Positions 20,823-48,039 of a stretch of 64,000 nucleotides of DNA are shown here, piece by piece. How positions within the stretch are numbered: position 1 is the first letter of the stretch; the number at the start of each line of letters is the position of its first letter. Where the stretch lies: contig JAMPFQ010000001.1 of the NCBI GenBank assembly GCA_023664345.1, positions 114,482-178,481 on the forward strand. Reading direction: 5' to 3'. A program made the translations under genes and the position numbers. This DNA comes from Lachnospiraceae bacterium (lineage in GTDB: Bacteria > Bacillota > Clostridia > Lachnospirales > Lachnospiraceae). The notes below the pieces were generated by a model. The model did not search any database, was not told where the DNA came from, and was given only the letters and a program-made list of their open reading frames with translations.

Positions 20823-20847
20823 ATCACCATTGTTTTAATCTACTTAT

Positions 20848-21185
20848 GTTTCTCCACAAGTTTTTCCATGGCAGATAACGACTCAAAATTCTCTGGAACT
20901 ATTTCCTCCGCTTCTAATACAATCTGAAATCCATCTTCTATGGCAGCAACTCTAATTCCATAAGGACAAAGCTGTCTATCATTCCATCCTTTCCAATCAA
21001 TCCTTCTTCAAATATCTCTTGGGCACCTTATATATAGTTCGTCCGCAACGTGCCTCTTTGCACAAATACTCCATCAAATCTGAACTGTCTCCAACAAGTT
21101 CCATTGTTATCTTATCTGTACTCAAATCCTGAATATAGCCTTTTCCTTTTAAGATACGATCAGCTTTATAGCATATTTTATCCAA
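20848..21185 (-). pseudogene. carrier protein (DltC/PCP-like) interrupted by a stop
   Basis: 20997-21185 encodes ...ELVGDSSDLMEYL (a GxDS phosphopantetheine-site-like motif) and then a stop. The downstream frame continues as ...VAAIEDGFQIVLEAEEIVPENFESLSAMEKLVEKH*. Confidence 0.4.
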
Positions 21186-21892
21186 CAGCCTTTTTGAGTT
21201 CTTATCTCCTTCGCTTCTTCATCATTTACTGTCAGTCTGTATTTGTAATGATTATACCAATCCCTGATAGGCCATTTATCTCCCATAATGTCTAGCGGCA
21301 TATGGTCCAAGTATTGTATGGCATCTATGAAACAAATACCCATAAATAATATCTTTGCATGATGTGAAACACAGAAATCCCATCCTGTCCTTTTTCCATG
21401 CGGGGTGTCAGATGTCATTTCGTGGCTGAACATCTCTTAAGCATATGGTCCCTGAGCCGCCAGTGTATTATAGGGAAATCGGGATTTGACCACAGCTTCT
21501 CGATGTAAAAACACACTGGGCAGTATATCCGTCCAGCACACATTGCTCTTAGACACTGTTCTAACACTTCTGTCTGGTAGTTCCTGTAGATTTTCCGGCG
21601 AAAATGTTGGAAATACAAGCGTCATCCCTCCGCCAAATGTATTTCGCAAAACTGCAAGCACTTCATCCGCTCTCATCGACAGGCGCTTAAGACCAACCAT
21701 AGAAGAATGGATAATCACAATATCTTCTGCACCAATACCAGTTTTCAAGTTGTTCCAGAAAACTCTCCCTGTTTTTTCAGCACATGAATCTGAATGTTCT
21801 ATTTCATTACGTGCCAAGCTTTTAGAATACTTTTTCAAAAAGTCCTTAAACTTCCTTGAATGTACCGCCATTCTTCTTAGAGTGATTTCCAC
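21149..21892 (-). pseudogene. second AAC(3)-family acyltransferase, frameshifted
   Basis: 21437-21892 carries EDIVIIHSSMVGL...GGGMTLVFPTFSPE, the AAC(3) core. The C-terminal part continues in another frame at 21149-21433. Confidence 0.55.
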
Positions 21893-22340
21893 CCCCCAAA
21901 TGAGTCAATACCCAACTTTCCGCTTTATACAACGTCTGAAAACTCCAATCTGGTATATTTATGTCCCATGCCACTTATATCATTATACTTCAGGAAAGGT
22001 CGTATAATCTATATGTCCAGCCATCCGATTTCTTAGCAGAGATAAAGTACACTAAAAGTTCATCATCCCCTAAATTTTCCGGGAAGTATACGTTTCCAAA
22101 CTGAAATAGCGCCATCGGCCAAAAATCCTTATTCAACAGGTTCAACATCAGTAGCAAAACAATGATTTCCTTTATGCATTCCTGCATATATGCATGGGCC
22201 CGGCATATCGTATAGTTTTAAAATCGTGCTATCACCGCATAACCGGATCAAATAGTTCTACATAGATGCTGCATCCGTCGCATAAAGCCCCCTATCTGTA
22301 CATGAAACTGCGCAGGTTCTATAATAGAGTGATTTACTGG

Positions 22341-22906
22341 CTATTGGGAAAACTTCTTTAAAGTCCGTGTCTGCACTCCAAATTCCACATCGCCTGTCGC
22401 TATGATATATCTGCCATTATAATCATCATATTTTATTCCACGAATATACCTAATCGTATTTTTCGGAAATTCATATACTTTCTTCCACACCCCCCGTTTC
22501 CCTTTCGTAAATTGCCACAGCTTCTCGATCAGGGTTGCCAAAGTACTCTCCATATAACACCTTTTCTATATGACCATTTTTATCCCGCCTTGCGCAAAAA
22601 CTCAAATGAGTTTTCGTTCCTTTCCTAAAACGGTGTTCTATCTTAAAGCTTTTCTCCAACACATTCAACAAATAGACATGTCCAACTCTCGCGATTAAAA
22701 AATGTTCATCGTCAATCACAGTAGCCCCTCTTGATTTCAAGCGCAACAACCGCTCTAAAAATCTTACAGATGGCAATCTCTCACCAAATCGATTAAAAAA
22801 ACCTTTCTCCAGATACATTCTCTCTGACCATCAAGATACCTTTATGATAAGAAAATATATAACGTCTGCTTTTACAAAGCACTTTTTCTTTAAGGTAAAC
22901 TTCCAT
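22341..22906 (-). pseudogene. hypothetical gene remnant in at least three frame-shifted pieces
   Basis: MKMEVYLKEK... (from about 22906), 22471-22818 and 22341-22553 overlap in different frames with continuous sense. No family could be assigned. Confidence 0.25.
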
Positions 22907-31842: not shown

Positions 31843-32452
31843 AGAATTTCTATCATGAATCATTTCCATCACTCCGTTTGTAAAGTTATAGCCAAAGCAT
31901 CCCACACGGCATAACATAAATCTAATGTATCTTATCACACTTTTTATGAAAAAGCAAATAAATGGAAATCTGAATTTTCTGCAAAGGAATTAACCTTATA
32001 CGGTTAACTCTAAAAATACACTCGATTGGAACGCGATATGGACAACAGCTACAGGAATTTCTTACTAAGACTAAAGGAGAAGCACATCCGATGACGTTTC
32101 ACCCAGCAGCAGCTGTGCCCCTGTATACAAATACCGCAAAGTTCTTTCAGCAGAACGGAAACAGAATATATATGCTTTACATATCCTAAACTCAAATATC
32201 TTTTACAGTCTGCGAAAGCAACATGGACATATCTGGACAGGTTATGCTGCAAATCCTGAAGAGGGATATGATCTTGTATGGACGCAAAATGGTCAAAAAA
32301 CAAATCGGCAGAAAAATGCAGGAATCAACCTTGCACGGTTCATTCCTGCAATATTAAGAGTCTCGGACGGAAAAAACTGCATGCTGTCTTTCAGGATTAT
32401 AAAATCAGTATATCAGAAGCATCCTCACAACGCCTTTCAGAAAACATGCAAC

Positions 32453-33377
32453 CTACTCGGTGCCGTATGATACGCCATCCTTTTCTGACAAGAGTTTTTT
32501 AAGTCGAGCAATTTCCGCATCTTTTACAGCAAGTTCCGCATCTTTATCGGCAAGAGCAGCCTCTTTCCTGGCAAACTCTTCCTCCACATAATTCTGCCGG
32601 CGGTAATAATCTTCGCGGGCTTCACACTGCAGGCGTATTTTTTCTTCCTGCGTCAGCTGGTAGATGGTGTTGGATGCATCGTTGATAAAATCATCTTTTT
32701 GTGCGAGCATTTTGATTTCCTCCCATGTGGTGGACTTGAAAAGGGAAGCCCAGTAGTCGATGTGATATGACCTGTCTTCTTCTGTTGCCAGATTGATACA
32801 AGTTAAGTTTAACACAGAGAAGCGTAGTTTGTCACTATATAACATATGATTTTTTACGTTCAGGAATTGATAAGTCGCATAAAACTCCGGACTTTCCGGA
32901 AACAGGGTAAAATTTAACAGACCAATCTGTATGGTCGGCTTCGCATAGCGGTAGTCCTGGTTATGCTCCAAATGGTCGAACGAGCGGCAGAGATAACTCA
33001 GGGAACGGTCTGTCCAGTTGTGCTCATTGATGACCTGCATCTCCAGATTGATATCGGTCTGGTCATTCATTAGTACTTTGACATCAAGGAAAAAGTCTCT
33101 GCTGTCAATGGTATCACCCAGTTCGATGGGATTCCTGATAGACACTGTGCGGACCTGTTCGCTGCTCAGATGCAGCAGGGAGCAGATCAGACCTTTCAGG
33201 ACGCGGTTGTTCCGCTGCAGCAGGGCACGGAACAGATAGTCATTGTACATAGGGATGGCGACAGGACCGGTAGCGGAATCGAGTCCTGTACCCGAGGCGG
33301 TTTCAGGAGCAGTGTCACGTTCCATGGTGACAGAAATGGAATTGTCAGGTACGTTGTTTGTGATCCTATTGTTCATA
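32453..33377 (-). mobile_element. Rpn-family recombination-promoting nuclease / PD-(D/E)XK putative transposase
   Basis: MYNDYLFRALLQRNNRVLKGLICSLL (the D..FK.LF-like N-terminus), a PD-(D/E)XK-like core and a C-terminal coiled coil (EEEFARKEAALADKDAELAVKDAEIARLKK). An AAGGAG RBS sits 5 nt before the ATG at 33377, so the ORF-track start at 33460 is probably too long. Confidence 0.6.
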
Positions 33378-33700
33378 CATTCTCCTTTGTGAGTGTGGCA
33401 TGGCGTTTTGATCAGGACGGTATTACGCACATTCAAAGTGCGGCACACTAAACAGCTCAAAACCTGAATGAAAGATCAAAATGCAGTCTGTAGTTTATGA
33501 TACAGGGTATAAACGGCGAACCGCCGCAGGATATCAAGTCGTTAAAAGCGTGTAATATAAAGGATACGGCTTAATCTAATAAAACAATAACATTATTTCA
33601 GAATAATGTCAACAGCAAATTGTATGTGCTGGAAATTTTGTCAGCATTTTGTCTTTTATATATGGTACGATCTGATGGGATGTGATACTATACAAATTAT

Positions 33701-33730
33701 ACAAAAAATAACCCGGCAGCACCGGGTTAT
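33701..33730 (-). terminator. Rho-independent terminator downstream of the three-gene island operon
   Basis: On the minus strand a perfect 7-bp stem (AACCCGG/CCGGGTT) with a 5-nt loop is followed by a TTATTTTTTG run, about 190 nt after the stop at 33923. Confidence 0.5.
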
Positions 33731-33922
33731 AAAGAGGCGGCTCAGATCATTACGGCATATACAAACGCTTTTATTCCCTTGCCGCAAACTGACCTGTGAT
33801 ACCTGAAATGTGATTGCACATAGACCGTATGACAATCATCAATTTGAAATCTGTTAAGCGGTAATTCCTTTCCTGTAAAATATCATGTCAAAATGTACTC
33901 CGGCAATTGCTTCTGCCATTTG

Positions 33923-35029
33923 CTATGCAGAGGCCATCTCCCATGTATTCCAACACTCTTTTTGAACCATTATATCGTATATTTTGTTTCTTATATCCGC
34001 ATTTTTTAAATATCCCAAGATTAACCTGGCATCAGCCCTAAATGACTCTTTAGACCCAAATGTCGCCCGATATAATCCTCTGATCTGATCCGCTGTTTTT
34101 TTTCTACAATTGAACTCTGCCAGCATCCCAAGCAGTTCATCCACTTCTCCCTGAGAAAATATCTGATAATACTGCTGGCATTTAGTCACATATGTTTTCA
34201 GGATAACGACCGCATCATAAAACCTGTTTTTGGTATCTGCGGACAACGGTTGTCCACAGGTAAACAGAAAATCTTCCAGGCTCTGGCCGCTTCCTATACT
34301 GCCTTTCTTTAATCTTGCATTGATATCCTCTCTGATCAGGTTTCTCCACTCCAAATATTTATTTTCACTTTCCATACCTATATACAAAGCGCACAGGTAA
34401 TGCTCTGCCTGTTCAGATATCGAACTCCGCTGTAAATAAACAGTGTTCAGATTCTTAAGGAATGCTGTTATCCAGGACAGTTCTTCCACCGATTTTTTCT
34501 GTTTGGTCATTTTTTGTCCTTCTATATCATCCACGGCATCCTGGACAAATCTATAAACCATCTTCTCAAATCGCCTCGTCAAAACTTCCGCGTCAAACGC
34601 ACAGATCATATCCGCCAGACATATGTTTCTACCCTGGAGCAACAGTTTCATTGTCATTAACAAAATAAACAGAAACAACAGGTTCACCTGATCATTCTCA
34701 TTTAATCCAGTCAGTTTCTTCCAGTAACATTTCACCTCTGCCTCATCTAAACGCATAACCACATCTGTATGCTCCGCACACTTGATGCTCTGACAGATTC
34801 CTCCCTCGATCTGACAAAGTATGCATTTCAAAGAATCCCCCTCTGAACGTGCCTCTCGCATCTCCGCACACGACAATCCAATGTCTTTTCTGTTTAAATT
34901 ATACAAATAGCACATCTGTATAATAGAGTCGCGATCAGGGCACAAGCATAATCCACTGTTTATGTGATCATTCTCGCATTCGATATTTACCGTCATATTA
35001 TATAAGCCTTTGCACACGTCTAACATCAT
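33923..35029 (-). CDS. hypothetical Cys-rich protein (368 aa), third gene of the island operon
   Basis: The N-terminal 85 aa contain 10 Cys (CxC, CxxC-like CILCQIEGGICQSIKC), and the rest looks helical. An AAAGG RBS precedes ATGATG at 35029. It lies 21 nt after the upstream gene. Confidence 0.4.
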   Translation of the reverse strand: MMLDVCKGLYNMTVNIECENDHINSGLCLCPDRDSIIQMCYLYNLNRKDIGLSCAEMREARSEGDSLKCILCQIEGGICQSIKCAEHTDVVMRLDEAEVKCYWKKLTGLNENDQVNLLFLFILLMTMKLLLQGRNICLADMICAFDAEVLTRRFEKMVYRFVQDAVDDIEGQKMTKQKKSVEELSWITAFLKNLNTVYLQRSSISEQAEHYLCALYIGMESENKYLEWRNLIREDINARLKKGSIGSGQSLEDFLFTCGQPLSADTKNRFYDAVVILKTYVTKCQQYYQIFSQGEVDELLGMLAEFNCRKKTADQIRGLYRATFGSKESFRADARLILGYLKNADIRNKIYDIMVQKECWNTWEMASA

Positions 35030-35050
35030 TAGTACCTTTCTATCAACTGA

Positions 35051-36781
35051 TCATACGCTTTTTTCATATTGTACTTCTATGTTTAAAGCTTTTTTTAGGA
35101 TACTGTTGTTCGCATATATGGGCAGCCGATCAATATAATAATCCCTGTAGTTTAATACCTCGTTATTAACAACTTCCTCATATTCATCCGGCAATAGGTT
35201 ATTCTTTATCTCCGGACAACGTGAGCACAATTGTTCGATCAATCCATCCTTTAATGTTGCAAAATCATAGCCGTTTATTGTACAAAACCCTTTAAATTCT
35301 ATCAGTGGCAATACCAGTGCCGCTCTGTTTTCTTCATTACAGGTAGGATTTTGTTCCCCTGCTGCGAGCAGGTTGCCCACACACTCCTGTCGATCTATCA
35401 CATCCGGCGATACGATGATCGTCACTTTACCGGCATCAGCCAGACTGATAGCCTTACACCAGATAGTCTTCATGGCATCGATCTTAAACATATCGCACAG
35501 TGTTCCTATGGAAATGCCTTTCATGCGCGGCTCATTTTTATCTGCCCGCTGTTCGTCCTGTTTTCCACATTCACGTATGAACTGACTCACACTGTCCTGT
35601 GCAGATCTGACCTTATCATAGATATCCTTTGATACTTTTGTAAAAGGATCTTTCTTATCTTCCATGATAAAACCGGACTCAAACTCTTTCAGGCAGGAGG
35701 TCAGTTCTTTTTCACGTCCCCGCAGGCACTCTGCGCTTTTAAAGCCCAGAGACGGTATCTCTTCTTTCCATTTGGCATGTTTTATCCCAATGTTTTTTAA
35801 AAATACATTTCCTAACGCCATACTTATCAAGTATGTTATGGTGCTGTACATAAAACGGTTGTGTGCATATACATCCTCTTGTTGCCAACAATCTTCGATT
35901 TCTTCTCTGCCGCCTTCAAGATCAATATAATGTTGGCTTTTGATTTTCTGAAAAGCGCCGCGAAGAGATCCTTTTTTGACAGGCTTCAGATAACAGTACG
36001 GTACTACGATCACTTTTCCCAGTCTCTTCAATGTATACACCCTGATCAGATCGGCCTGCGTAATCTTCAGAGTCCCCTCAAGCGCTTTATGGTCAGTACA
36101 ATAAAGAAATGCCCCGACACCGTAATGCTCCTGTACCGTTGTAGTAATGTCCTCCACCTGTTCTTTATCCTGTACAAACTTCTTTAGACACTCTCCTTCG
36201 GGGGTATCAAGATCGTATTCCGCATATGGGAGATAGGAAATATAAGGTTGGCCCGCCGTAAAAAAGGCATTAACAATCTTACCAGAAAATGTGCGCCATA
36301 TTTCGTCATCGACCTTCTCACTTGCGTCCAGTCGATCCAATAATCCACTTTTTATCAGCTTCTTGTCAATATTTTGCAAGAGCACTTTTGCACGTATCCT
36401 ATCCGGGCTGCACCCACAATGCTCCACCAGATATTTATATTCCTCATCGAGGGCGCGACCGTGCAAGACAATATCGTCCACCAACAAAATATCAGCGTTA
36501 TTTAGCATACTCTCCCACAACACAACGGATATATTGGTGACTATGCGTCCCTGCGGCTTTATATCGCCTTCATACAAGAAGTCAATAATCTCTTTAAACA
36601 CACTGTATAAGGCAGATAAACGCCTTGTCATCAAGATCTTTATCTGCTCGCTGCTCTGCATGATATCAACAAAAAAGTCCAGGATCCTATAGAAAAAGGA
36701 TTCTCCCAGGATAGATACCAAAATCTGGATCTTAACTGTGACTTTGTCAGATGTAGATGTCATAATCCTTATTCTCCCCAT
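35051..36781 (-). CDS. hypothetical 576-aa protein with an N-terminal type-I phosphoribosyltransferase-like PRPP-loop motif
   Basis: Residues about 95-110 read NADILLVDDIVLHGRAL. This is hydrophobic x4-DD-hydrophobic x3-(T/H)G-x-(T/A), like PyrR VILVDDVLYTGRTV. The remaining roughly 400 aa are unassigned. The start overlaps the upstream gene's stop, which indicates translational coupling. Confidence 0.45.
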   Translation of the reverse strand: MGRIRIMTSTSDKVTVKIQILVSILGESFFYRILDFFVDIMQSSEQIKILMTRRLSALYSVFKEIIDFLYEGDIKPQGRIVTNISVVLWESMLNNADILLVDDIVLHGRALDEEYKYLVEHCGCSPDRIRAKVLLQNIDKKLIKSGLLDRLDASEKVDDEIWRTFSGKIVNAFFTAGQPYISYLPYAEYDLDTPEGECLKKFVQDKEQVEDITTTVQEHYGVGAFLYCTDHKALEGTLKITQADLIRVYTLKRLGKVIVVPYCYLKPVKKGSLRGAFQKIKSQHYIDLEGGREEIEDCWQQEDVYAHNRFMYSTITYLISMALGNVFLKNIGIKHAKWKEEIPSLGFKSAECLRGREKELTSCLKEFESGFIMEDKKDPFTKVSKDIYDKVRSAQDSVSQFIRECGKQDEQRADKNEPRMKGISIGTLCDMFKIDAMKTIWCKAISLADAGKVTIIVSPDVIDRQECVGNLLAAGEQNPTCNEENRAALVLPLIEFKGFCTINGYDFATLKDGLIEQLCSRCPEIKNNLLPDEYEEVVNNEVLNYRDYYIDRLPIYANNSILKKALNIEVQYEKSV

Positions 36782-37728
36782 TCAATGTATGGAACTGCCT
36801 TTACCTTATTAGAACCCCGATCCATCCTGGCGCTGTTTATCATACATCTGACTTTACAGCAGCTGTACCCGACCCCGTCCGAATCACGTCCATCAATACT
36901 ATTATAAAATCGGACTCCCAGCGTCAAAATACTCTTATCAAAGTTTATCCTCTTATAGTTATTATACTTTACATGCATTGTGGCCATATCGAACAGATCT
37001 TCTATGCTATCTGAACAATCGGTATGTTCATCAATGATAATCACCATCTTGTCGGTGATCGATATGTCGCGGTAATCTTTCAGAAAGATATCAAATTTTT
37101 TATCAGCAATCTCCCATTCGATCCGATCAACATCATATTTTGTGACCGGGACCATGCCCTCATTGATAATGTCACAGGTCAGTACAATGTATCTTTTTCC
37201 TTCCATGGTTTTTTTATGACCAAAATAGGTAAAATATAACTCTTCGATATACCAGTTTACCTGATATTCCTTAAGAGGCTTGCTGAACACCTCTATACTG
37301 ACTGACCGTATAGCAATCCTGGGCTTCAACTGATATCTGTTCACGATCTCCGTTAGCCGGGCTATCTGTTCCTGCTGCATTTGTGCCTGCTGATCCTGTT
37401 TATTACTCAACTCCGCTTGCCGATAAGTAACCCACCCAAGCAAAATGGCAACCATACTGCCTATATAGCTGCCCCAGAAGCCAAACCATTCTTTGGCGGT
37501 CATATCCGACTGGATCGGTATTTTATAGTACCATTTATAGGTGATTGCGGCATTGAGCAATATAGGGAACGCCAAAAAAGCAATGATGCCCAAAAAGATA
37601 TATAGAAACGCTCTTCGTTTATCCCTGGAGCGTCTTTTTTTCACGCTTCTGATTGCCATTCCCAAACCCAATAAGACAACAATAGTTATGATAACAATTG
37701 CTATCTTCGTCCAGAATCTCATGGGCAT
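36769..37728 (-). CDS. membrane protein (three N-terminal TM helices plus a roughly 200-aa soluble C-terminal domain), first gene of the island operon
   Basis: Hydrophobic segments IAIVIITIVVLLGLGMAI, AFLYIFLGIIAFLAFPILL and GSYIGSMVAILLGWV. A GAGGG RBS precedes the ATG at 37728. The ORF-track TTG at 37785 is less likely. Confidence 0.45.
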   Translation of the reverse strand: MPMRFWTKIAIVIITIVVLLGLGMAIRSVKKRRSRDKRRAFLYIFLGIIAFLAFPILLNAAITYKWYYKIPIQSDMTAKEWFGFWGSYIGSMVAILLGWVTYRQAELSNKQDQQAQMQQEQIARLTEIVNRYQLKPRIAIRSVSIEVFSKPLKEYQVNWYIEELYFTYFGHKKTMEGKRYIVLTCDIINEGMVPVTKYDVDRIEWEIADKKFDIFLKDYRDISITDKMVIIIDEHTDCSDSIEDLFDMATMHVKYNNYKRINFDKSILTLGVRFYNSIDGRDSDGVGYSCCKVRCMINSARMDRGSNKVKAVPYIEWGE

Positions 37729-37857
37729 GTCCCTCTTTTGTACTATAACACATGCAGCATTCGTTTTCGCCATCAATAATGGCAATTTATTGTTACTAGC
37801 TTATCATATCCTTACAATAAAATCAATTATCAATTTGCTGACAGCCCTATATAGCAG

Positions 37858-39738
37858 CTATATTCCACCACCCTGCTCCTCGTAATGATACGTAGGCACG
37901 ATCTCCCGTACATTTTCCCTGATATCCGCCGACTCGTTCCCGGCATCCTCCCCCAGCTTCTTAAGCTGTTCCTCAAACAGTTCCGCGTCAAACTCAATGG
38001 GCCTGCCAATGAATATCATCTTATTGGCGGTCTTTTTCAGCCCCTCCTCATTCATCAGCAGTTCTTCATACATCTTCTCGCCGGGGCGCAGTCCGGTAAA
38101 CTTGATCTCTATATCTTCCCCGACCTTATAGCCGGAAAGCTTGATCAGGTTGGTGGCCAGATCCAGGATCTTTACCGGCTCTCCCATATCCAGCACGAAG
38201 ATTTCTCCGCCTTTCGCGTAGGCTCCCGCCTGCAGCACCAGAGAAACAGCTTCCGAGATCGTCATAAAATAACGTATGATATCAGGGTGGGTGACTGTTA
38301 CCGGACCGCCCTCCGCGATCTGCTTTTTGAACAGGGGGATCACGCTGCCGTTGCTCCCCAGTACATTCCCAAACCTTACCGCCACAAAGTTAGTTTTGGA
38401 TTTCTGGTTCATCAGCTGAATCACCATCTCGCAGATCCGCTTTGAAGCTCCCATGATATTGGTAGGATTGACCGCTTTGTCCGTGGATATGAGCACGAAT
38501 TTCTCCGCGCCATACCTGTCCGCAGCCTGGGCAGTCTTATATGTCCCCATGACATTGTTTTTGATCGCCTCGTTAGGGCTTGTCTCCATCAAAGGCACAT
38601 GCTTATGCGCGGCGGCATGATATACGATGTCAGGCCGATATGCCTCAAAGATATGGTTCATACGGTTCGTATTCCTGACGGACGCGATCAGGACCTGCAG
38701 ATCCAGTTCAGGATATTTCCAGAGCAGTTCCTGTTGAATATCATAAGCATTATTTTCATAAATATCCACAATGATCAGCTGTTTGGGCCGATGAGCAGCA
38801 ATCTGCCTGCACAGTTCGCTGCCGATGGAACCGCCTCCGCCCGTGACCATGACCACCTTGCCGCTGACATAACCGAGCACCTCCTCCGTATTGATGCGGA
38901 TCGGCTCCCTGCCCAGCAGGTCCTCGATATCAACTTCCTTTAATGTGGCAACGGATACATCTCCGTTGATCAGCTGATACATACCGGGAAGCGCACGCAT
39001 CTTACAGCCGGTCTCCTTACAGATATCCAGAAACTCCCGCCTGGTCCTGGCATCCGCCGAGGGGATCGCGTATATGATCTCATCTATCCCATACTCTGAT
39101 ACCGCCTCCATGATCTTATCCCTGCCGCCCACAATGGGCACACCGCGGAGCAGTTTTCCATGGCAGCCCTCCTGGTCATCCACAATACATTTTGCCCGCA
39201 GATTCAGGTAGGCGCTGCTTTCAATCTCTTTCAGGATCATATTTGCCGCGGCGCCTGCGCCGATCAGCATGACATTGACCCCTTTCTTCCTGCCCAACAG
39301 GTCATTACGCTTGTTATTAAATATCCGCAGGATACGGTATCCAAACCGGATACAGGTGATAAGCACCGTCAGCAGAAACCAGTAAAGCACATAATAACTT
39401 CTGGGCATCCTCTGATCCAGCACATAACACAGTACTGTCTGAGCAACAGACGTGCAGGTGGTGGCAAATATCACATTGATCAGCTCATTGGCGCTGGCAT
39501 ATCTCCACACGCTCTTATACAGCTTCCACACTGCAAAGAGTGCCAGTGCCACGCCGATATCAATCAGGATGATATGTTCGAATTTGAGAATATATTCTTC
39601 TGGAATATTAGAAAAGCTGAACTCGAATCGGATATATAACGCCCCGAACGATGCCACGATGACCGCCATGATATCCATCAGGGCCAATGCGATGATCCGA
39701 TTTGTGGGTATATCTATAAATCTTCCTTCTTTTCTCAT
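37858..39738 (-). CDS. membrane-anchored UDP-GlcNAc 4,6-dehydratase (PglF/CapD/WbpM family)
   Basis: Four N-terminal TM helices are followed by two Rossmann regions (GAGAAANMI ... VTGGGGSIGSEL) and YxxxK. At 626 aa it is typical of polysacc_synt_2 proteins. Confidence 0.8.
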   Translation of the reverse strand: MRKEGRFIDIPTNRIIALALMDIMAVIVASFGALYIRFEFSFSNIPEEYILKFEHIILIDIGVALALFAVWKLYKSVWRYASANELINVIFATTCTSVAQTVLCYVLDQRMPRSYYVLYWFLLTVLITCIRFGYRILRIFNNKRNDLLGRKKGVNVMLIGAGAAANMILKEIESSAYLNLRAKCIVDDQEGCHGKLLRGVPIVGGRDKIMEAVSEYGIDEIIYAIPSADARTRREFLDICKETGCKMRALPGMYQLINGDVSVATLKEVDIEDLLGREPIRINTEEVLGYVSGKVVMVTGGGGSIGSELCRQIAAHRPKQLIIVDIYENNAYDIQQELLWKYPELDLQVLIASVRNTNRMNHIFEAYRPDIVYHAAAHKHVPLMETSPNEAIKNNVMGTYKTAQAADRYGAEKFVLISTDKAVNPTNIMGASKRICEMVIQLMNQKSKTNFVAVRFGNVLGSNGSVIPLFKKQIAEGGPVTVTHPDIIRYFMTISEAVSLVLQAGAYAKGGEIFVLDMGEPVKILDLATNLIKLSGYKVGEDIEIKFTGLRPGEKMYEELLMNEEGLKKTANKMIFIGRPIEFDAELFEEQLKKLGEDAGNESADIRENVREIVPTYHYEEQGGGI

Positions 39739-39822
39739 GTCAGATTCCTTCTCTTCCTGTCATTTATCTGGGGTGGCTGTTTATCTGCTTTTGCCAAAGC
39801 ATATCATACCACATCCGCACTT

Positions 39823-40812
39823 TTATAACAATAGCTTCCTGTGCAGCCTCCTGATCCCCCTTGGCGCGATCGCGAACAGCGTGTGGTACACCTTGTCCTT
39901 TCCTGACAGGATCGGATTCCTCATGGATCGCCACCAGTTTTTCCTCAGATACCGCACCACATTTAAATATCTATCGTTATCTTTTCTCATCTGAGAAATA
40001 GGTATATGCAGCATATAGTCGATTCGCTGAAAGATGCCGAAGCGGAACGCGATATCCTGCAGTTGCGGATACTTGTCCCGCACGATCATGCAGACCATAT
40101 CCGCATTGTCGATATTATCGGCATATACCCGGGAAAAAGTCTCCCTATCCGCTTTTCTGGAATTGCTGCCCACACGGTAAAATACATGATAGCCTCTGTC
40201 CGGCAGTGACGCGATCCTGGGGATTCTCTCCCCCAGAAGCTGCACCAGCAGATGAAAATCTTCGTTCAACATACCTGCGGGAAATTCCCGATCCTCCAGC
40301 ACGTCCCTTCGGATCAGCTTGGTGCAGAAAGAGCAGTCTCCCCGGTGCATCAGCAGTTCTTTCAGGAAATCTTCCGCTTCAATACAGACCGGCTCCCCGG
40401 GCGGAACGCAGATATCAGGCAGTCTGTTCCCATCGGGATCGATTTCATCCCTGCCCGTCTGGGCCACAGGCGCACCGTACTGTGTTATGGCCGCATAAAG
40501 CTTTTCATACATATCAGGCTCCACGTGATCGTCACTGTCCACAAAACCCAGATATTCGCCTTTTGCTTCCGCGATCCCCAGATTCCTGGCGGAGGAAGAT
40601 CCTCCATTTTGCTTATGGAACACGCGGACGCGCCGATCCTCTTCCCCCAGTCGGTCGCAGAGCGCACCGCTTTTGTCCGTAGAGCCGTCATCCACCAACA
40701 GGATCTCCAGCTGCGGATAAGTCTGATCCTGCAGCGACTTCACGCATCTGGGCAGATATTCTTCTGTGTTATATACCGGAACAATAATACTGATCAACGG
40801 ACGTTCCATCAC
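39823..40812 (-). CDS. GT2-family glycosyltransferase
   Basis: ISIIVPVYNTEEYLPRCVKSL...LLVDDGSTD...DSDD. Confidence 0.75.
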   Translation of the reverse strand: MMERPLISIIVPVYNTEEYLPRCVKSLQDQTYPQLEILLVDDGSTDKSGALCDRLGEEDRRVRVFHKQNGGSSSARNLGIAEAKGEYLGFVDSDDHVEPDMYEKLYAAITQYGAPVAQTGRDEIDPDGNRLPDICVPPGEPVCIEAEDFLKELLMHRGDCSFCTKLIRRDVLEDREFPAGMLNEDFHLLVQLLGERIPRIASLPDRGYHVFYRVGSNSRKADRETFSRVYADNIDNADMVCMIVRDKYPQLQDIAFRFGIFQRIDYMLHIPISQMRKDNDRYLNVVRYLRKNWWRSMRNPILSGKDKVYHTLFAIAPRGIRRLHRKLLL

Positions 40813-40883
40813 GACAACCTCTTTTTTATTACGTATGTTATTTCATCGTTCATTATATTATAAGCGCAAGTGGGTTTTCATGT

Positions 40884-42089
40884 TCATAAAACACCTTTCA
40901 TAACCGCGGAATACATCTTCCTTTCCGGAATAACGGGTGCTCTCGAAACAGGCCCCGACTCCGGCTGCGTCTTCCAGTCCATTGTCTCCGGAACGTCTCC
41001 CTCTTCCAGGAAATCCTGCCGGACGCAGAATCCCAGCAGCCGCTCCGCTGCGGTTTCCGCATTCCACTCCCGGACGATCGTCCGGACGGCGCTCCTGCCC
41101 AGCCGCTGACAGAGTTCCCTGTCCTGCAGCAACCGCTCTGTCAGCCGGAGCAGGGAATCCTCCGAACCGTCGCGGTATATCATGCCATTCTCCCCATGCC
41201 GTATCAGATAGGGAACCGCTCCCATCATGCTGCTTCCCACTACGGCACAGCCGCTGTTCATGGCTTCATTGACCACCGCTCCCCAGCCCTCCTGACGGTC
41301 GCTGGTGGTCAGATAAATATCAGCCCGTTCCATCATACCGCGTACCTGCTCCGGCGGGCAATAGCCATGGAGCGTCACGACCTCCTGCAGCTTCAGGCTT
41401 TCCACCAGAGCAGACACCTGTTTTTCCATTTCGCCGCCGCCCACCACATCCAGGTGAAAAGAATATCCTTTCTCTTTCAGATACGCGGCCGTCCTTATGG
41501 GCAGTTCAGGGTGCTTCCAGTCCAGGAACCTGGCCGCCCAGAGTATCCTGCCGGGCTGTTTTTTCTCCATCAGCCAGTTTATATCATACTCTCTCTTTTC
41601 CGGAAAATATCCCCATTTCAGCATTTTCCCCGGATAGGCGCCCACCAGATGAAAGTCGCTGGGCACATATGCCCCGGCACAGCACAGATAAACGGGCCGA
41701 TTCCGATAACAGGTGTGATCGTGATACTTCTTTTTCAGCCCTCTGGGGGAGACCGCTTTCCACTGTCCCGTCTTGTACAGGCGCTCACTGTAACGGATCA
41801 CCGGCCTGCCCGCCCGCAGCCTGTCTTCGATATAGCTCTCCTCATCACTGCCTCCGAAAAATACCACCTTGGCATGATCGATCAGCTCCCGGCAGCTTTC
41901 CGGCTCCTCATAATATTTCCTCAGATATGGCACATCCGTCTGCTCCTGCCAGCCCATCCTGACGCGCTCCTGCTCCATGGGCTCCGTCTGGATGAAAACA
42001 AAGCTTCCCGACAGCAGTCCGTACATCGCACCGCAGAATGGAATCTGATGATGATTTAAGTAATTAGAAACAAATACAAACTTGCTCAT
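40884..42089 (-). CDS. GT4-family glycosyltransferase
   Basis: The C-terminal group-1 GT pattern (...TSDRQEGWGAVVNEAMNSGCAVVGS...). Confidence 0.6.
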   Translation of the reverse strand: MSKFVFVSNYLNHHQIPFCGAMYGLLSGSFVFIQTEPMEQERVRMGWQEQTDVPYLRKYYEEPESCRELIDHAKVVFFGGSDEESYIEDRLRAGRPVIRYSERLYKTGQWKAVSPRGLKKKYHDHTCYRNRPVYLCCAGAYVPSDFHLVGAYPGKMLKWGYFPEKREYDINWLMEKKQPGRILWAARFLDWKHPELPIRTAAYLKEKGYSFHLDVVGGGEMEKQVSALVESLKLQEVVTLHGYCPPEQVRGMMERADIYLTTSDRQEGWGAVVNEAMNSGCAVVGSSMMGAVPYLIRHGENGMIYRDGSEDSLLRLTERLLQDRELCQRLGRSAVRTIVREWNAETAAERLLGFCVRQDFLEEGDVPETMDWKTQPESGPVSRAPVIPERKMYSAVMKGVL

Positions 42090-42105
42090 GTTCCCGCCTT
42101 CAAGA

Positions 42106-43479
42106 TTATTTTCTGGCCATCATTTCTGAATATATTTCCATCATTTTTAAATAATTCTGTTGGCGGTCATGTGTTTTTTCTGCATGTTTTCTTGCATTTT
42201 GACAATATCCGCTCATTTTTTCCCTATCGGACCATATCTCGATAACCGCGTCAGCAAGCCGCTCCGAAATCAATTCCAGCTGTCTGCCCCGATCGTACTT
42301 TAGATCATCTATGTTATCAAACTTATTTTCGACACTTCTGAACCCTTCATACAGGATACCGTCCTGCCCCGCAGTGAATATGCTGGGGATCCCACCCACA
42401 TCCGCACTGACACAGGGCATGCCCAGCAGCATTGCCTCCCCCAGGGAATTGGGAGAATTCTCAATGGACGAGGGGCATACGAAAAGGCCGCATCTCAGAT
42501 ATCGATCCCGCATCTGTCGGGCATCCAGCCTCCCTGTAAATATCACTTGTTGTTCTATCTTCTTCTCTTTGATCAGGCTCCGGAGATATCCCCCATAACC
42601 GGATATCTTCAGCCGCTGCTTCCACGTATCGTATCGGGTCAGATCCTGTCCTGCCACATACACTTTCACATCCGGATATCTTTCCCGTATCATGGGCAGG
42701 GCAGTCAGCATATAGTGCAGGCCTTTTACCGGATAATCTCCCTGGCTCAGAAAGATGGCGTGTTCCTCACAGTTTTCCCGGTTCCATTTCTGCCCGTAAA
42801 ATTCCGAGCGCAATGTTTCATTCATTTTATAATATCTGGCGTTATTGTTCCATTCACCCGTATAGAACCGATCCCATTCCGTGCGTCCCGTCACATTTCC
42901 CGCAAGCCCGACAGCTTCCATCTCCATGGCTCCACGGCGGGCAAATTTCTTCTGCTGTTCCCGCAGGCCATCTTTCTTCAGCAGATCCCGCAGTGTCGTC
43001 TTATGGATCGCATCCTCCGGCATATCGGCAAAATAGGCATTGGCATAGACGGCGCACAATCCCTGGATTCCCAGCAGAATCCTGTCCCTGTGGGGAAATA
43101 TCCTGCAAAGGGCAAGGGTATGGGGATATTCCGTGCCGAAGCAATGTACGATATCGGGCCGAAAGTCGCTTATGATCTTTCTCAGGCGTTCCTCCAAGCC
43201 CTCATCATAGAGATCTGGCCGCGCAGTGTCCTCATAGAACCCATAGCAGGTCAGTACGCCCTGTTCTGCGGATATCTTCTCCCTGCGGATCTCGCGTTCT
43301 CCGGCAAACATCGACCTGGGACCGGGAAAAGCGACAGCCAGTTCTATGTCGTTTTCCATACGTTTCTCCAACACCACACTGACCAGGCCGCTGATCCAGC
43401 CCTCCTTGTTCGTCGCTTCCATATGCAGTTGTTCCGCGATCATGGGAATCATGATATTGCAGAGCCATAAGATCCTCAT
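42106..43479 (-). CDS. GT4-family glycosyltransferase
   Basis: MRILWLCNIM... N-terminus; C-terminal ENSPNSLGEAMLLGMPCVSADVGG (EX7E-like). The ORF-track start at 43587 adds an Arg-rich extension and is probably upstream of the true start. Confidence 0.6.
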   Translation of the reverse strand: MRILWLCNIMIPMIAEQLHMEATNKEGWISGLVSVVLEKRMENDIELAVAFPGPRSMFAGEREIRREKISAEQGVLTCYGFYEDTARPDLYDEGLEERLRKIISDFRPDIVHCFGTEYPHTLALCRIFPHRDRILLGIQGLCAVYANAYFADMPEDAIHKTTLRDLLKKDGLREQQKKFARRGAMEMEAVGLAGNVTGRTEWDRFYTGEWNNNARYYKMNETLRSEFYGQKWNRENCEEHAIFLSQGDYPVKGLHYMLTALPMIRERYPDVKVYVAGQDLTRYDTWKQRLKISGYGGYLRSLIKEKKIEQQVIFTGRLDARQMRDRYLRCGLFVCPSSIENSPNSLGEAMLLGMPCVSADVGGIPSIFTAGQDGILYEGFRSVENKFDNIDDLKYDRGRQLELISERLADAVIEIWSDREKMSGYCQNARKHAEKTHDRQQNYLKMMEIYSEMMARK

Positions 43480-43579
43480 GTAAACTTCCTTTCTGTCAGC
43501 CACAGATAAAGCCGCAAACCCCTCCCGCCCATTGGCATTTCCCGGAATCCCGCGCCTTCTGCCCTTTTGCCTGCGAAGA

Positions 43580-44701
43580 TCAGTCAAAGATCCAGTTCAA
43601 GTAAGGAAGCAGGCGCACATCCACAGCATACATCCCTCTCAGCAAAAGCAGAAAATACAGCGCAAACCCTACGATCACGCCCATACAACACAGCTTCTTC
43701 AGCACGCCCTCTCGCATATCCTCCAAAAGCCTGGGGAGCAGGAATACCTGGGATATGATCATGTAATATCCCACCCTGGAAACCTCCGGGATGAACGAAC
43801 CACAGCAATATACCACCAGCCCCGCTATATTGAGGAAGAAATAAAATCGGTTGTTCAGGTCTGACGTCAGGCTCTTTTTATAACAGATCCCGCATAAGAT
43901 CAGCACACAGACACATTTTACAATGTTCACATAGGAAAGCTGTCCCGCGTCAAACATGGAATCCCTGTAATAGGGATAAAAGTAGAAAATGATCTCCTGA
44001 TAAAAACTCTGGCAGAAGATCAGGCTGGCAACAAAAATCCCGCCTGTTATATAATGCCATTTCTTCAGCTTTGCCGCCGCCAGAAACCTTGCCAGCAGAT
44101 ATACCGGTATCACCAGCAGAATGGATTTATGAAACATCGCTCCCGCTAGGATCCACAAGATGAATTTACCGTATTCCCCCCGCAGGACGTATTTCATAGC
44201 GTAGAGCGCTATGGCGAGAGCCAGATAATAACGCACGGTATTTAAACTGTTGAAATAATATCCTCCTGTCAACAGCAGGAAAAGCGAGACGGCGAAATCA
44301 CTTCCCTGATCTTCCAGCGCTCTCACAAAAAAGAAAACCGTCACGATGGAAAAGAATCCGAATACGGGAAGATAATGATCGTAGCCAAAGATCTGCTGTA
44401 TCCATTTTACGATCAGATTGAAGCCCGGCTCATAAGATACATATCTCCCCTGAGCGATCAGCTTGAAATTATCCCTGTAGACCCAGTAATCATTTCCCAC
44501 CGCGATGCGGCACGCGGACACTCCCGCCATCAGGCAGAACACCGCAAACACGGCGATATGGTTCCTCGCCTGTCTGCGATCCGTCCCGGCATTACGCCGA
44601 CCGCTGATATAGCCGGGCACATATCGCCGATTATCCACACAAAGCCCCAGCAGGACCGTCACCGCAGTCAGCAGGACATAGACAAGTGCGCTAGGTTCCA
44701 T
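43580..44701 (-). CDS. EpsG-family polysaccharide polymerase (Wzy-type membrane protein)
   Basis: 373 aa with about 10 TM segments, and a composition and length typical of EpsG. Confidence 0.5.
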   Translation of the reverse strand: MEPSALVYVLLTAVTVLLGLCVDNRRYVPGYISGRRNAGTDRRQARNHIAVFAVFCLMAGVSACRIAVGNDYWVYRDNFKLIAQGRYVSYEPGFNLIVKWIQQIFGYDHYLPVFGFFSIVTVFFFVRALEDQGSDFAVSLFLLLTGGYYFNSLNTVRYYLALAIALYAMKYVLRGEYGKFILWILAGAMFHKSILLVIPVYLLARFLAAAKLKKWHYITGGIFVASLIFCQSFYQEIIFYFYPYYRDSMFDAGQLSYVNIVKCVCVLILCGICYKKSLTSDLNNRFYFFLNIAGLVVYCCGSFIPEVSRVGYYMIISQVFLLPRLLEDMREGVLKKLCCMGVIVGFALYFLLLLRGMYAVDVRLLPYLNWIFD

Positions 44702-45476
44702 TTCTGCCCTCCCGTACTCCCTGTTTCATCCATGCATATGCCTGTTTCAGGCTGATTTCCTTACAGAAGATCCCCTTATGCGCCAGAAGGAACCGCAGGC
44801 TCATGGCTCCTGCCAGCTTTCCATATAAGAAGTGGTACAATACTCCCCTGTCCGTGAAAAACTTCTCATTGTATCCCGCAAACCAGGTGGATTCCCCGGC
44901 CTCTTCCCTGCCTATGGTAACGGGCGCTGTATAGACCCGGTATCCCTTATCCATAAATTCTTTCAGGAACAGACTGTCTTCCCCATTGCTGTACTTTGCG
45001 CCGCCGCCAAAAAGGAGCGAAAAAGTAACACGCGATCTCAAAAGGCTCTCCCGCCGCACCGCGAAGCTGACCGCGCCGTACCTCCCACAGTTATACCAAT
45101 GTACCCTCTTGCGGTCCCGGATATGGTAGGTTCTCCTGGATTCTTCCACATCGATATTGAACAGGATCATATCCGCTTTGGGATTTCGCTCAAACTCGGC
45201 GGCAATGGCTTCCGCGTAACCCGATCCATACACGATATCACCGTCCGCAAACAGGCAGATATCCTGATCCGCTCTCAGGATCGCCTCATTGCGGCTCCGG
45301 CCTACTCCTCGGTCTGGAAAAGAGTAAAAGGATATGGTATGTCCCCTGTGTTCCATCCTCTGCACTCCAAAGCGTTCACACTGGTTGATAATCACGGCAT
45401 CGGACTCCAGCCCCATATGTTCCACCACATTTTCCATGGTTTCATTCATAACAGACGCCAATACCTGAACTTTCAT
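44691..45476 (-). CDS. glycosyltransferase (GT-A-like, DxD-containing)
   Basis: ICLFADGDIVYG (DxD). The likely start is MKVQVL at 45476. Confidence 0.45.
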   Translation of the reverse strand: MKVQVLASVMNETMENVVEHMGLESDAVIINQCERFGVQRMEHRGHTISFYSFPDRGVGRSRNEAILRADQDICLFADGDIVYGSGYAEAIAAEFERNPKADMILFNIDVEESRRTYHIRDRKRVHWYNCGRYGAVSFAVRRESLLRSRVTFSLLFGGGAKYSNGEDSLFLKEFMDKGYRVYTAPVTIGREEAGESTWFAGYNEKFFTDRGVLYHFLYGKLAGAMSLRFLLAHKGIFCKEISLKQAYAWMKQGVREGRNGT

Positions 45477-45478
45477 AT

Positions 45479-46606
45479 TCACACCCCATGCCCGCTTCCG
45501 ACGGGCACAGGCACTTCCCCGCATTCCGCCGCGCGTCTGCCAAAATAATATGCTCTGATCAGCTTCTCATCCGCGTTCCATAAAATAACAGATGCCACTT
45601 TACAATCCTGCTGCCGCAGATATTCCAGACAATATTCCAGCTGTTTTCCGGCGTGCGCTCCCGCCTGTACCGCCAGCAGGATACCGTCCGCCTCCCGCAG
45701 CGCCCTACAGCTTTCCGGACAGAGCAGCGGGGACGGTGCCGCAAACCATTCCTCTGTCTGGAGCGGCTCTCCGCACTTTCCGCGGACGGCAGCAAGTATC
45801 TCCGCCGGATCCGTCTCCGCCTGTACTCCACAGACCGCCACCTTTTTCTTTCCTTTATATAAATAATGAAGATTCTCTGACAATCCGGGACTTTCCAAGG
45901 TACCTGCCACTTTCACGCCATAACGCTTTCTGATGGTAGCGGGAAGCCAGATATTATCGTCTCCCGTTTCTTTCAAAAGCAGGATCACTATGGTAAAGAA
46001 ACAGCTGAGTACCGCACTGAGCGCAAATGCCCGGCCGGGCCGCACGTCCGGCACCACCTCTTCTGCGGTCTCCGGCGCATCTATGACACGAATGTCAGTT
46101 ATCTCTCTGACCGCTCCCGGAAAGTCCTCCGTCATAGCCTGTTCCACCGCTCGGGCAATCAATCGGCTCACCACCCCGCTGCCAGTGATAACGGTGGTCG
46201 AGGGGACGCGCAGATCCGACGCCAGATATGCCGTCAACGATCCCGACACCTGCTCCGCACTGATCTGATCGGGCCAGTCGCTGTCATAAAAACGCGCCTC
46301 TTCTTCTAGATGTGCCATCACCATGTCCAAAAACTCCTGGGAATGAAGGTATGTGTTCCAACTCATCTCATTGATGTAGACGATCCCGATATCCTTTTCT
46401 TCCTCCACCGCATATTCCACGCGATAGGTGGAGGTAATGCCATATTGTTTTTCAGAGCGCATCAGGACATTTTTCACATAATATCCCCCGCCAAACAACA
46501 AAGTCCCCGCCAGTGTGAACACCAGCACTTTATCAAGACTGGCGATCAGGCGGAGTACTGTCAGCCTTAAGTCAAACGGTTCTTTTCCATACTTTCCTTC
46601 CCACAT
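45479..46606 (-). CDS. Wzz/CpsC-like polysaccharide co-polymerase (chain-length determinant), possibly with a degenerate kinase-like C-terminus
   Basis: Two TM helices (LVFTLAGTLLFGGGYYV; LSAVLSCFFTIVILLL) flank a periplasmic-type domain. A GGAGAG RBS precedes the ATG at 46606. Confidence 0.45.
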   Translation of the reverse strand: MWEGKYGKEPFDLRLTVLRLIASLDKVLVFTLAGTLLFGGGYYVKNVLMRSEKQYGITSTYRVEYAVEEEKDIGIVYINEMSWNTYLHSQEFLDMVMAHLEEEARFYDSDWPDQISAEQVSGSLTAYLASDLRVPSTTVITGSGVVSRLIARAVEQAMTEDFPGAVREITDIRVIDAPETAEEVVPDVRPGRAFALSAVLSCFFTIVILLLKETGDDNIWLPATIRKRYGVKVAGTLESPGLSENLHYLYKGKKKVAVCGVQAETDPAEILAAVRGKCGEPLQTEEWFAAPSPLLCPESCRALREADGILLAVQAGAHAGKQLEYCLEYLRQQDCKVASVILWNADEKLIRAYYFGRRAAECGEVPVPVGSGHGV

Positions 46607-48039
46607 TCGCTCTCTCTCCATTCTTTCTCTTCCCGAAGGGCGGTGATCTGCTCGTTCTCCACTCCCTCCGTGCTGTCCGGCCAGAAAAGAACTTTCAGCG
46701 TCAGCAGCATCAGCTTGATATCCATCCACAGGGAATAATTTTCAATATAAGTCAGATCCAGTTTCAGTTTGTCATAAGGAGAAGTATTGTATTTTCCGTA
46801 AACCTGCGCAAAACCGGCAAGTCCCGCCTTGACTTTCATGCGATAGACAAATTCCGGCATCACTTCCAGATACTGTTCTATGATCTCCGGCCGCTCCGGT
46901 CTGGGGCCAATGAAAGACATATCTCCTTTCAGGATGTTGAAAAGCTGAGGAAGCTCGTCTAGCCTGCATTTGCGGATAAATTTCCCGATAGGCGTGATAC
47001 GGTCGTCATTCTTCTGCGCCAGCCTTGCCACGCCGTCCTTTTCCGCGTCTGTCCGCATGCTCCGGAATTTCATGATCTGGAACTGCCTGCGGTTTATGGT
47101 ACAGCGCACCTGCTTGTACAGCACGGGGCCGCCGTCATACAGCTTGATGGCAGCCGCCGTCAGGATCATAAAAGGGGAGGCGATGGTCAGAAGAATCAAA
47201 GCGCACACAATATCGAGCATGCGCTTTATGAACCGCTGTTCCATGGACAGGCTGTATTCCCTTGTCAGCATGATCGGGGTATCAAAGATATGAAGTTCCT
47301 CTGCCCCCATTAAAATAACGTCAGTAATCTTTGGCAGCAGATAGACACGGATTCCTTTGCCATAACAGTATTTCAGCAAAAGATTCCTTTCCTCCACAGA
47401 CATATCGCCTACCACTACCGCATTACACTCTTCATTTTCATAGGCGTCTTCTATCATTTTACAGATCTTCTTATAGCCTTCCCTGATGTGCGCGGTCCTG
47501 GTGATCACGTATTTGTCTTTCCGGCTTTCAAACTTGCTGCAGATGCTTTCCACCGGCCTGTATCCATGAATCAGGAACAGCTTTCTGGGCGGAAAAACAG
47601 ATTTATAGATGCGATTTGCCACGTTGATGTAAATGACCACGATCAGGGTCTGCTCCGTCATCATCATCAAAAATACCTTTGGCACAAACGCCTGGTGCGC
47701 CATGATGGAAAGTTCGAAATAGATGATGATATTGGCGAGTATGGTGGAAAAGACCTGTGAGAAGATCAGTTCCATATTCTTCAGGTATCCGAGGCGCATT
47801 CCTCCGTACATATTGGAGAGGAACAGAAGCACGATGGCATAAAACCCTATTTCCGCAAGATGTCCCATTCTCCAGAAATCCCGCAGCTGTTCTACCACGC
47901 TGTACTGAAAATGGACCAGCCAGTGGTAGGCAAAATCTCCCACCTCCAGAGCCAGGCATATCATTACCAGTACAAGATTGATCAGGCGTTTATATGTTTC
48001 CAGTTTTTTTAACTTTTCTTCGTTGGTAACTGCGCTCAA
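46567..48039 (-). CDS. WbaP/EpsL-type polytopic initiating phosphoglycosyltransferase
   Basis: An N-terminal TM bundle is followed by the C-terminal sugar-transferase domain (KFRSMRTDAE ... FIGPRPERPE ... AGLAGFAQV). It has a GGAGG RBS and a TTG start at 48039. Confidence 0.8.
   Translation of the reverse strand: MSAVTNEEKLKKLETYKRLINLVLVMICLALEVGDFAYHWLVHFQYSVVEQLRDFWRMGHLAEIGFYAIVLLFLSNMYGGMRLGYLKNMELIFSQVFSTILANIIIYFELSIMAHQAFVPKVFLMMMTEQTLIVVIYINVANRIYKSVFPPRKLFLIHGYRPVESICSKFESRKDKYVITRTAHIREGYKKICKMIEDAYENEECNAVVVGDMSVEERNLLLKYCYGKGIRVYLLPKITDVILMGAEELHIFDTPIMLTREYSLSMEQRFIKRMLDIVCALILLTIASPFMILTAAAIKLYDGGPVLYKQVRCTINRRQFQIMKFRSMRTDAEKDGVARLAQKNDDRITPIGKFIRKCRLDELPQLFNILKGDMSFIGPRPERPEIIEQYLEVMPEFVYRMKVKAGLAGFAQVYGKYNTSPYDKLKLDLTYIENYSLWMDIKLMLLTLKVLFWPDSTEGVENEQITALREEKEWRESECGKESMEKNRLT

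Follow-up and report, generated by a model that had tools for sequence, protein, structure and literature searches.

A three-gene cassette of gut Clostridia built around a phosphoribosyltransferase-fold protein: a candidate conflict system

Phosphoribosyltransferase (PRTase) domains are carried by effectors of type III retrons, PsyrTA and the Ophion defence (bioRxiv 10.1101/2025.09.30.679545), and ShosT is a PRTase toxin whose toxicity needs the PRTase DD motif (PMC11961720). Here we describe three genes, A, B and C (the trio), at positions 33923-37728 of a 64,000-nucleotide stretch of a Lachnospiraceae bacterium genome (GCA_023664345.1, contig JAMPFQ010000001.1), the whole of which is called the window. 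The locus is a self-contained, horizontally exchanged cassette of a family not described before, with a PRTase-fold protein encoded by its middle gene. Its most likely role, to which we give about an even chance, is that of a conflict system of the anti-phage, abortive-infection type.

An initial annotation made from the sequence alone had read the interval as a compact operon of three minus-strand genes without a nameable family, a novel system possibly related to defence. The three co-oriented minus-strand open reading frames (ORFs) are indeed recovered and fill 33923-37728.

36769..37728, minus strand: gene A, ORF of 319 amino acids (aa); the start annotated publicly for a near-identical strain, 37722, gives 317 aa
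35051..36781, minus strand: gene B, longest ORF of 576 aa; the probable start at 36763 gives 570 aa
33923..35029, minus strand: gene C, ORF of 368 aa

The novelty stands as well, since no described system is matched in PADLOC, Pfam, NCBIfam, PHROGs or the Protein Data Bank (PDB) sequences beyond the PRTase domain. In the four profile libraries, A, B and C together give just a sub-threshold PRTase match for B and composition-type transmembrane (TM) matches for A. The defence library searched was PADLOC 2.0 (2023).

Across genomes, the trio recurs as a unit in >20 independent loci, with B identity down to ~18%, and is found in many gut Clostridia. The co-occurrence search proposed by the initial annotation thus finds the three genes conserved together, and they are inherited jointly even in lineages that have diverged widely. 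Close homologues of B are few, 9 in 5.8 billion proteins, and a search with an 80-sequence profile returned only those 9 again. Among 185,579 species genomes scanned, one trio locus was found, in Eubacterium plexicaudatum ASF492 (L009 in our locus numbering), which is a culturable carrier for tests. Every close-B locus with readable flanks has the same gene order and similar protein sizes, and the proteins flanking B there are 19-27% identical to A and C.

L001-4: A/B/C of 341 / 588 / 353 aa
L005: A/B/C of 317 / 591 / 332 aa
L006: A/B/C of 323 / 580 / 333 aa
L008: A/B/C of 320 / 576 / 362 aa
L009: A/B/C of 324 / 603 / 348 aa

The same pattern extends to distant B relatives, in L010, L012, L014, L016, L043 and L045 and in the metagenome loci L020-L028. 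Over all trio loci, the sizes range over ~270-340 aa for A, 550-640 aa for B and 210-360 aa for C. Searches of viral contig, phage genome and plasmid collections gave no relative.

A sister strain served for comparison, the public metagenome-assembled genome GCA_023663325.1 (“Eubacterium sp.”, L007). Its positions 1-12853 align to window 46763-33911 with 99.44% identity in blastn, and the two diverge completely 12 nucleotides (nt) past the C stop. There, the sister strain continues with ALGX, MBOAT, HTH and NusG genes.

33911..33922, strand not applicable: end of homology to the near-identical strain GCA_023663325.1 (blastn), the recombination junction

The aligned 12.85 kb holds 72 differences, of which 1 lies in 33911-37800 and 71 in the adjacent 8.9 kb. 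At the background rate, we estimate that ~15 would be expected in the trio interval, so the single one observed suggests a recent exchange of the cassette. The flanking single-nucleotide polymorphisms (SNPs) cluster, with 20 at 39.5-40.0 kb and 18 at 45.0-45.5 kb. This pattern over 33911-46763 suggests mosaic recombination in the exopolysaccharide (EPS) locus.

The trio had been described as an island flanked by an Rpn-family gene. The Rpn gene is truly there, its product scoring above threshold with PF12784 (E 1.8e-28, 100.3 bits) and TIGR01784 (54.5 bits, cut-off 52.1). An island bounded by it is not supported, as the 99.4%-identical strain has the trio and lacks Rpn. Therefore, the trio moves with the upstream block, the Rpn gene is not its vehicle, and we reject this gene as the mobiliser.

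The structure of B was predicted by AlphaFold using nine homologues, and the model is confident (pLDDT 84.8, the predicted local distance difference test; pTM 0.86, the predicted template modelling score). From the N-terminus, B comprises a type I PRTase fold, an alpha/beta domain in the middle and a winged-helix-like unit, and a helical domain forms the C-terminal part. The N-terminal part has the five-stranded alpha/beta core of the type I PRTase superfamily. A loop motif for phosphoribosyl pyrophosphate (PRPP) had been noticed at the position expected for such a fold, and it is found in the modelled fold with its hydrophobic strand, two acidic residues and phosphate-binding turn. On this model, the type I PRTase fold of B is genuine.

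36227..36649, minus strand: PRTase-fold core of B, about residues 45-185
36490-36449, minus strand: PRPP-loop motif ILLVDDIVLHGRAL, residues 98-111 of B
35336..35509, minus strand: winged-helix-like unit of B, about residues 425-482

Across 80-149 relatives, D102, D103 and G108 do not vary and the conservation of H107 is at least 90%, the turn being a variant HGR in place of the usual TGxT. R53 and R54 are placed after strand 1 of the core. Invariant or nearly so across the family are R53 (with R54), D102, D103, H107, G108, W162, S166, Y180, R247, Y249, P261, D409/E410, R419, G422, D449, G451, G475 and E476. Because the pyrophosphate-loop arginines and the DD motif are retained, B would probably have a functional site for PRPP or a nucleotide. 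The winged-helix unit bears the family-wide motifs D449-x-G451 and G475-E476-Q477 (GEQNxTCNEEN), and this acidic and glycine conservation disfavours a classical DNA-recognition helix in it.

By sequence search, B of the window scores 15.8 bits with PF00156, below the gathering cut-off of 26.3, and 26 of 80 relatives match that family at E<=1e-3, the best at 4.2e-8. The PDB sequence search with B gave PRPP-loop alignments alone, to PyrR, PurF and HPRT; the VDDVLYTGRT of PyrR aligns with the VDDIVLHGRA of B. The middle alpha/beta and C-terminal helical domains gave no informative match, and none of the solved structures spans the whole protein. An exhaustive hidden Markov model search collected 396 cluster representatives of the B family at E<=1e-3 and 247 at E<=1e-10, mostly of 550-650 aa among the 150 representatives listed.

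Protein A has 2-3 N-terminal hydrophobic or TM helices, close to the three that had been counted, followed by a coiled-coil segment rich in Gln and then by a C-terminal domain of ~190 aa. The C-terminal domain is predicted to be cytoplasmic because of the positive-inside rule on the KKRRSRDKRR loop. Alignment identifies A homologues upstream of B in other loci, most of the A proteins across loci having 2-3 TM helices. Profile-profile comparison shows homology between the close and the distant A group (probability 97.6%, E 3e-12). A is unmatched in Pfam, PADLOC, NCBIfam and PDB, its sole library matches being the composition-type TM ones, and PDB profile searches with A and C found nothing.

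Protein C was noted for a 10-Cys N-terminus. It is Cys-rich there, with 11 Cys within residues 1-101, and only C30 and C79 are invariant across diverged homologues.

34727-35029, minus strand: Cys-rich N-terminus of C, residues 1-101

The Cys-rich N-terminus itself is recurrent, and in 6 of the 10 metagenome loci examined the first 100 residues of the protein downstream of B include 6-12 Cys. The C-terminal part is all-helical; the predicted structure of C is a poor model, and C is too divergent for statistical support between the close and distant groups. The 368-aa ORF of C is intact and backed by full-length homologues, but public records give C as 277 aa or 212 aa (P0010, P0011), so these database entries lack the Cys-rich N-terminus.

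The B family is found also outside the trio. In the unrelated metagenome loci L030, L031 and L036, a full-length B relative lies directly upstream of the RADAR genes rdrA-rdrB and has their orientation, the gaps being 68, 129 and 0 nt.

L030, 7965-15204: RADAR and B-like locus
L031, 7929-15925: RADAR and B-like locus
L036, 750-6466: RADAR and B-like locus

RdrA of these loci is matched at E 1e-9 to 4e-14 in PADLOC and 7e-11 with PDB 8hr7/8fnt. RdrB in L030 and L031 is matched in PADLOC at ~6e-33 and 2e-35 and is a Pfam adenosine deaminase, and the gene after RdrA in L036 matches the L031 RdrB (phmmer E 1.5e-43). The three B relatives share 24-31% mutual identity on contigs of 28-55% GC content (GC), and between R53 and Q477 they retain almost every hallmark residue. 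They match no PADLOC model, the RADAR accessory models included, and the literature searched gave neither an account of this accessory gene nor a report linking RdrB to a phosphoribosyltransferase. B was considered as RdrD and rejected, as RdrD has been described as a putative pore-forming membrane protein (PMC11482910).

Another variant, L034 at 1357-6226, comprises B, a C-like Cys-rich protein of 385 aa and a KAP-family P-loop NTPase of 565 aa, and no A-like protein. The B family is therefore modular, being with A and C in most loci, with C and a KAP NTPase in one and with RADAR rdrA-rdrB in three. This modularity favours a conflict or defence role.

The wider neighbourhoods of the trio are mostly cell-surface loci. 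The setting is one of EPS or glycan genes in the window, L005, L006, L012, L014, L016 and L027. The trio sits between flagellin genes in L001-4, beside giant or choline-binding surface proteins in L010, L021 and L022, beside a CAP/SpaA gene in L043 and beside acyltransferase, CotH and sulfatase genes in L045. L009 is the exception, where the trio lies among sugar-catabolism genes. In the gut metagenome loci L001-L004, 3-4 flagellin paralogues are interleaved with csrA/fliW, Uma2-family genes occur in L001, and the trio is between two flagellin genes in all the variants examined.

Mobility and conflict markers also occur nearby, the Rpn gene of the window among them. L012 has an integrase and a ResIII/Mrr protein, L025 and L042 have an integrase as neighbour, and RelB appears twice near the trio in L043. 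L045 (GCA_037193245.1, 12799-17842) carries an integrase and then DO-GTPase2, GrpE-like and Hsp70 genes 2 kb downstream of the trio, and also an ISL3 fragment. We take the DO-GTPase2-GrpE-Hsp70 set to be a predicted NTP-dependent conflict system.

How might the cassette work as a conflict system? B would be the catalytic hub that binds PRPP or a nucleotide and, once activated, would perturb nucleotide pools like the ShosT PRTase or make a phosphoribosylated product. C, with its probably metal-binding Cys-rich N-terminus, may be the sensor or regulator of B, and A may be a membrane-anchored partner or effector with its C-terminal domain facing the cytoplasm. The position in EPS, flagellin and other surface loci would then reflect phage-resistance determinants co-located in recombination hot spots.

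A bolder version, which we hold to be distinctly unlikely in its entirety, makes B an exchangeable immunity hub that produces a phosphoribosylated signal or toxin from PRPP. Its outputs would be A, KAP NTPases or RADAR, and C would sense infection. The systematic placing of the cassette in flagellin, EPS and pilin loci would then have receptor variation and intracellular immunity co-inherited as single phage-resistance islands in gut Clostridia.

The defence role is plausible by association, namely with RADAR, the KAP NTPase, the Mrr-like protein, DO-GTPase2/Hsp70, integrases and RelB in some of the sampled loci; this locus sample is small and non-random, and most neighbours in it are surface genes. 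Several findings weigh against the role. A, B and C of the window match no PADLOC model, and the ShosT and retron-III PRTase matches of the relatives are weak and no better than that of the generic Pfam PRTase, so they give no ground for placing B in the defence PRTase clade. Most trio loci are ringed by surface-structure genes and not by recognised defence genes, and ten neighbours of unknown family gave essentially no PADLOC matches. The RADAR linkage concerns distant B relatives without A and C, and no fold match supports the roles given to A and C.

Because the trio is embedded in cell-surface loci, a surface-linked role is a serious rival. The initial annotation had offered a surface-glycan accessory function as its alternative, and the trio may have one, most of its loci being cell-surface loci. 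In a regulatory form, the trio would be a signalling module that tunes the adjacent EPS, flagellin or pilin genes, with A as a membrane sensor and C as a metal-binding partner. B would be PurR/PyrR-like, its PRTase-like domain sensing PRPP, (p)ppGpp or a nucleotide and its winged helix binding DNA or RNA. About 13 of the 15 trio loci with readable flanks being cell-surface loci speaks for it, as does the winged-helix-like unit. The B relatives linked to RADAR or KAP would be upstream regulators of those operons, presumably akin to BrxR/CapW-type regulators, and B does precede rdrA in 3 of 3 RADAR loci. However, the adjacent surface genes differ in kind (EPS, flagellin, pilin, glycosidase) and are absent in some loci such as L009, and the conserved winged-helix residues are acidic or glycine (D449, G451, G475, E476) with no basic recognition helix. 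Moreover, catalytic-type PRTase residues are strictly conserved, and exchange of the unit between contexts with a near-absence of SNPs relative to the flank is atypical for a dedicated local regulator. Altogether we consider such regulation rather unlikely.

The glycan and flagellin surroundings also suit a catalytic surface function, in which B, like gPRT-PRP/Bcs3 CriT, would use PRPP to decorate a surface polymer or flagellin with ribofuranose-5-phosphate, with A and C as membrane and accessory factors. PRTase-fold glycan ribofuranosyltransferases do exist (PMC10299916, PMC11127046), and an ATP-grasp-HAD protein is encoded 3.4 kb downstream in the window. This function is very improbable, though, when a HAD phosphoribose phosphatase is neither fused to the trio nor conserved beside it in other loci, and relatives of B are also encoded next to RADAR, next to a KAP NTPase and in one locus that has no glycan genes. 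Furthermore, B is structurally nearer to nucleotide PRTases than to CriT and keeps the vicinal DD motif, which CriT does not have (PMC10299916). A selfish addiction cassette of toxin-antitoxin type without host benefit would persist in variable loci prone to recombination; B would be a toxin acting on nucleotide pools, and C, A or both would neutralise it. The mobility and the patchy spread would accord with such a cassette (9 close homologues in 5.8 billion proteins, and a single locus among 185,579 species genomes). The strain-specific junction and near-zero divergence that point to recent transfer, the RelB, integrase and insertion-sequence neighbours and the toxicity of the ShosT PRTase (PMC11961720) agree with it too. 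Yet the trio was not found on plasmids or phages, and three genes including a membrane protein are unusual for a toxin-antitoxin module, so that we find pure addiction quite improbable. Addiction and defence are hard to separate because many toxin-antitoxin modules are defence systems.

Within the window, the trio is surrounded by a large polysaccharide-biosynthesis region. Upstream are a PglF-like dehydratase, GT2/GT1 transferases, EpsG and Bac_transf, and downstream are DegT, the ATP-grasp-HAD protein, PglD-like, Bac_transf, formyltransferase, PIG-L, GT1 and Wzy. The trio and the Rpn gene together lie between the PglF-like dehydratase on one side and the DegT, PglD-like and PglC-like genes on the other, so a glycan pathway is split as had been described.

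37858-39738: PglF-like dehydratase gene upstream of the trio
32453-33460: Rpn/PDDEXK_2 gene
33698..33730, minus strand: intrinsic terminator closing the operon, scanned as ATAACCCGGTGCTGCCGGGTTAT then TTTTTGTATA

The expression signals largely agree with the initial annotation. The A stop and B start overlap with the longest-ORF start at 36781, but not with the ATG at 36763 that is preferred from homologue alignment and public annotation and lies 5 nt past the A stop; A and B are tightly coupled even so. The 21-nt spacer between B and C contains GAAAGG, in line with the ribosome-binding site claimed there. The clean terminator assigned to 33.70-33.73 kb is a hairpin at 33730-33708 with a 10-bp stem including 5 GC pairs and a T-run after it. 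A simple scan found no consensus sigma-70 promoter in the ~130 nt upstream of A, so transcription may read through from the upstream glycan genes. An extended -10-like element, TGTTATAGT at 37750-37742, was spotted by eye only.

Compositionally, the trio has 41.2% GC, compared with 41.3% at 26.5-33.9 kb, 37.5% at 1-26.5 kb and 50.8% at 37.9-48 kb. The trio had been taken for an island of lower GC than its flanks, and this holds on the upstream side only; low GC runs on over window 1-38 kb. The window is thus two-part, ~37-41% GC at 1-37800 and ~51% at 37800-64000. The non-coding stretches of ~0.5 kb thought to bound the trio (31939-32452 and 33461-33922) in fact flank the Rpn gene, and just ~130 nt separate A from the gene upstream.

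The downstream glycan block (bacillosamine-like DegT, PglD-like, PglC-like, formyltransferase, PIG-L) is low in GC and missing in the sister strain, and probably represents a half of the locus that was gained horizontally and is specific to the serotype. On the flanks of the trio or the Rpn gene, the only repeats are short matches at chance level. An 18-nt imperfect inverted repeat, 31975-31992 and 33862-33879 (83% complementary), brackets the Rpn gene with both its non-coding flanks and is at chance level by length and identity. Rfam yields zero families at gathering score anywhere in the window. At 17900-22850, fragmented ORFs resemble decayed genes, among them an AMP-binding enzyme split in two (20415-20822 and 19679-20473), membrane-transporter-like pieces (17918-18865) and further split ORFs (21149-21892, 22341-22818).

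If the trio serves in defence, the few PRTase-based immune systems (ShosTA, type III retrons, PsyrTA and Ophion) would be joined by a new architecture, one from gut Clostridia, in which immunity is little explored, and an undescribed accessory component of RADAR would come to light. If its role is instead to regulate or modify the surface, EPS, flagellin and pilin loci would share a new control module that senses PRPP or a nucleotide. In both cases, a family of ~400 sequence clusters, whose fold is confidently modelled and not in PDB, has no current annotation.

Among regulators with a PRTase fold, PyrR and PurR have 180-290 aa against the 570 of B, the domain order of PurR is opposite, and neither has membrane or Cys-rich partners or mobility. 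In the gPRT-PRP enzymes and Bcs3 CriT, as in B, helical bundles flank a PRTase-like catalytic core, and the genes belong to surface-glycan loci (PMC10299916, PMC11127046). No HAD domain is found in A, B or C, and none is conserved beside the trio in other loci.

Among the defence systems, the trio was considered as ShosTA, a type III retron or RADAR; it falls outside all three because their defining partners are absent. The effectors of type III retrons and PsyrTA and OpnC of Ophion carry a PRTase domain as B does, and a few B relatives weakly match PRTase_III-A models. However, the trio is without a reverse transcriptase, non-coding RNA, RecQ-like, radical-SAM or PHP partner (no reverse transcriptase ORF lies in 30-42 kb of the window), and B is much longer with conserved C-terminal domains of its own. 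As to RADAR, three diverse loci have a full-length B relative in the place of an accessory gene, directly upstream of rdrA-rdrB, but rdrA and rdrB are not found around the trio of the window.

ShosTA is likewise a small stand-alone cassette, and its PRTase-fold protein keeps the DD motif intact as B does. The PADLOC ShosT model weakly matches 24 of 80 B relatives; B of the window has no PADLOC match, and no ShosT entry is among its PDB sequence matches. The trio has no counterpart of the DprA-like ShosA. ShosT (424 aa) joins an N-terminal pyrophosphatase/hydrolase to a C-terminal PRTase, whereas B begins with the PRTase and continues with ~400 aa of other domains.

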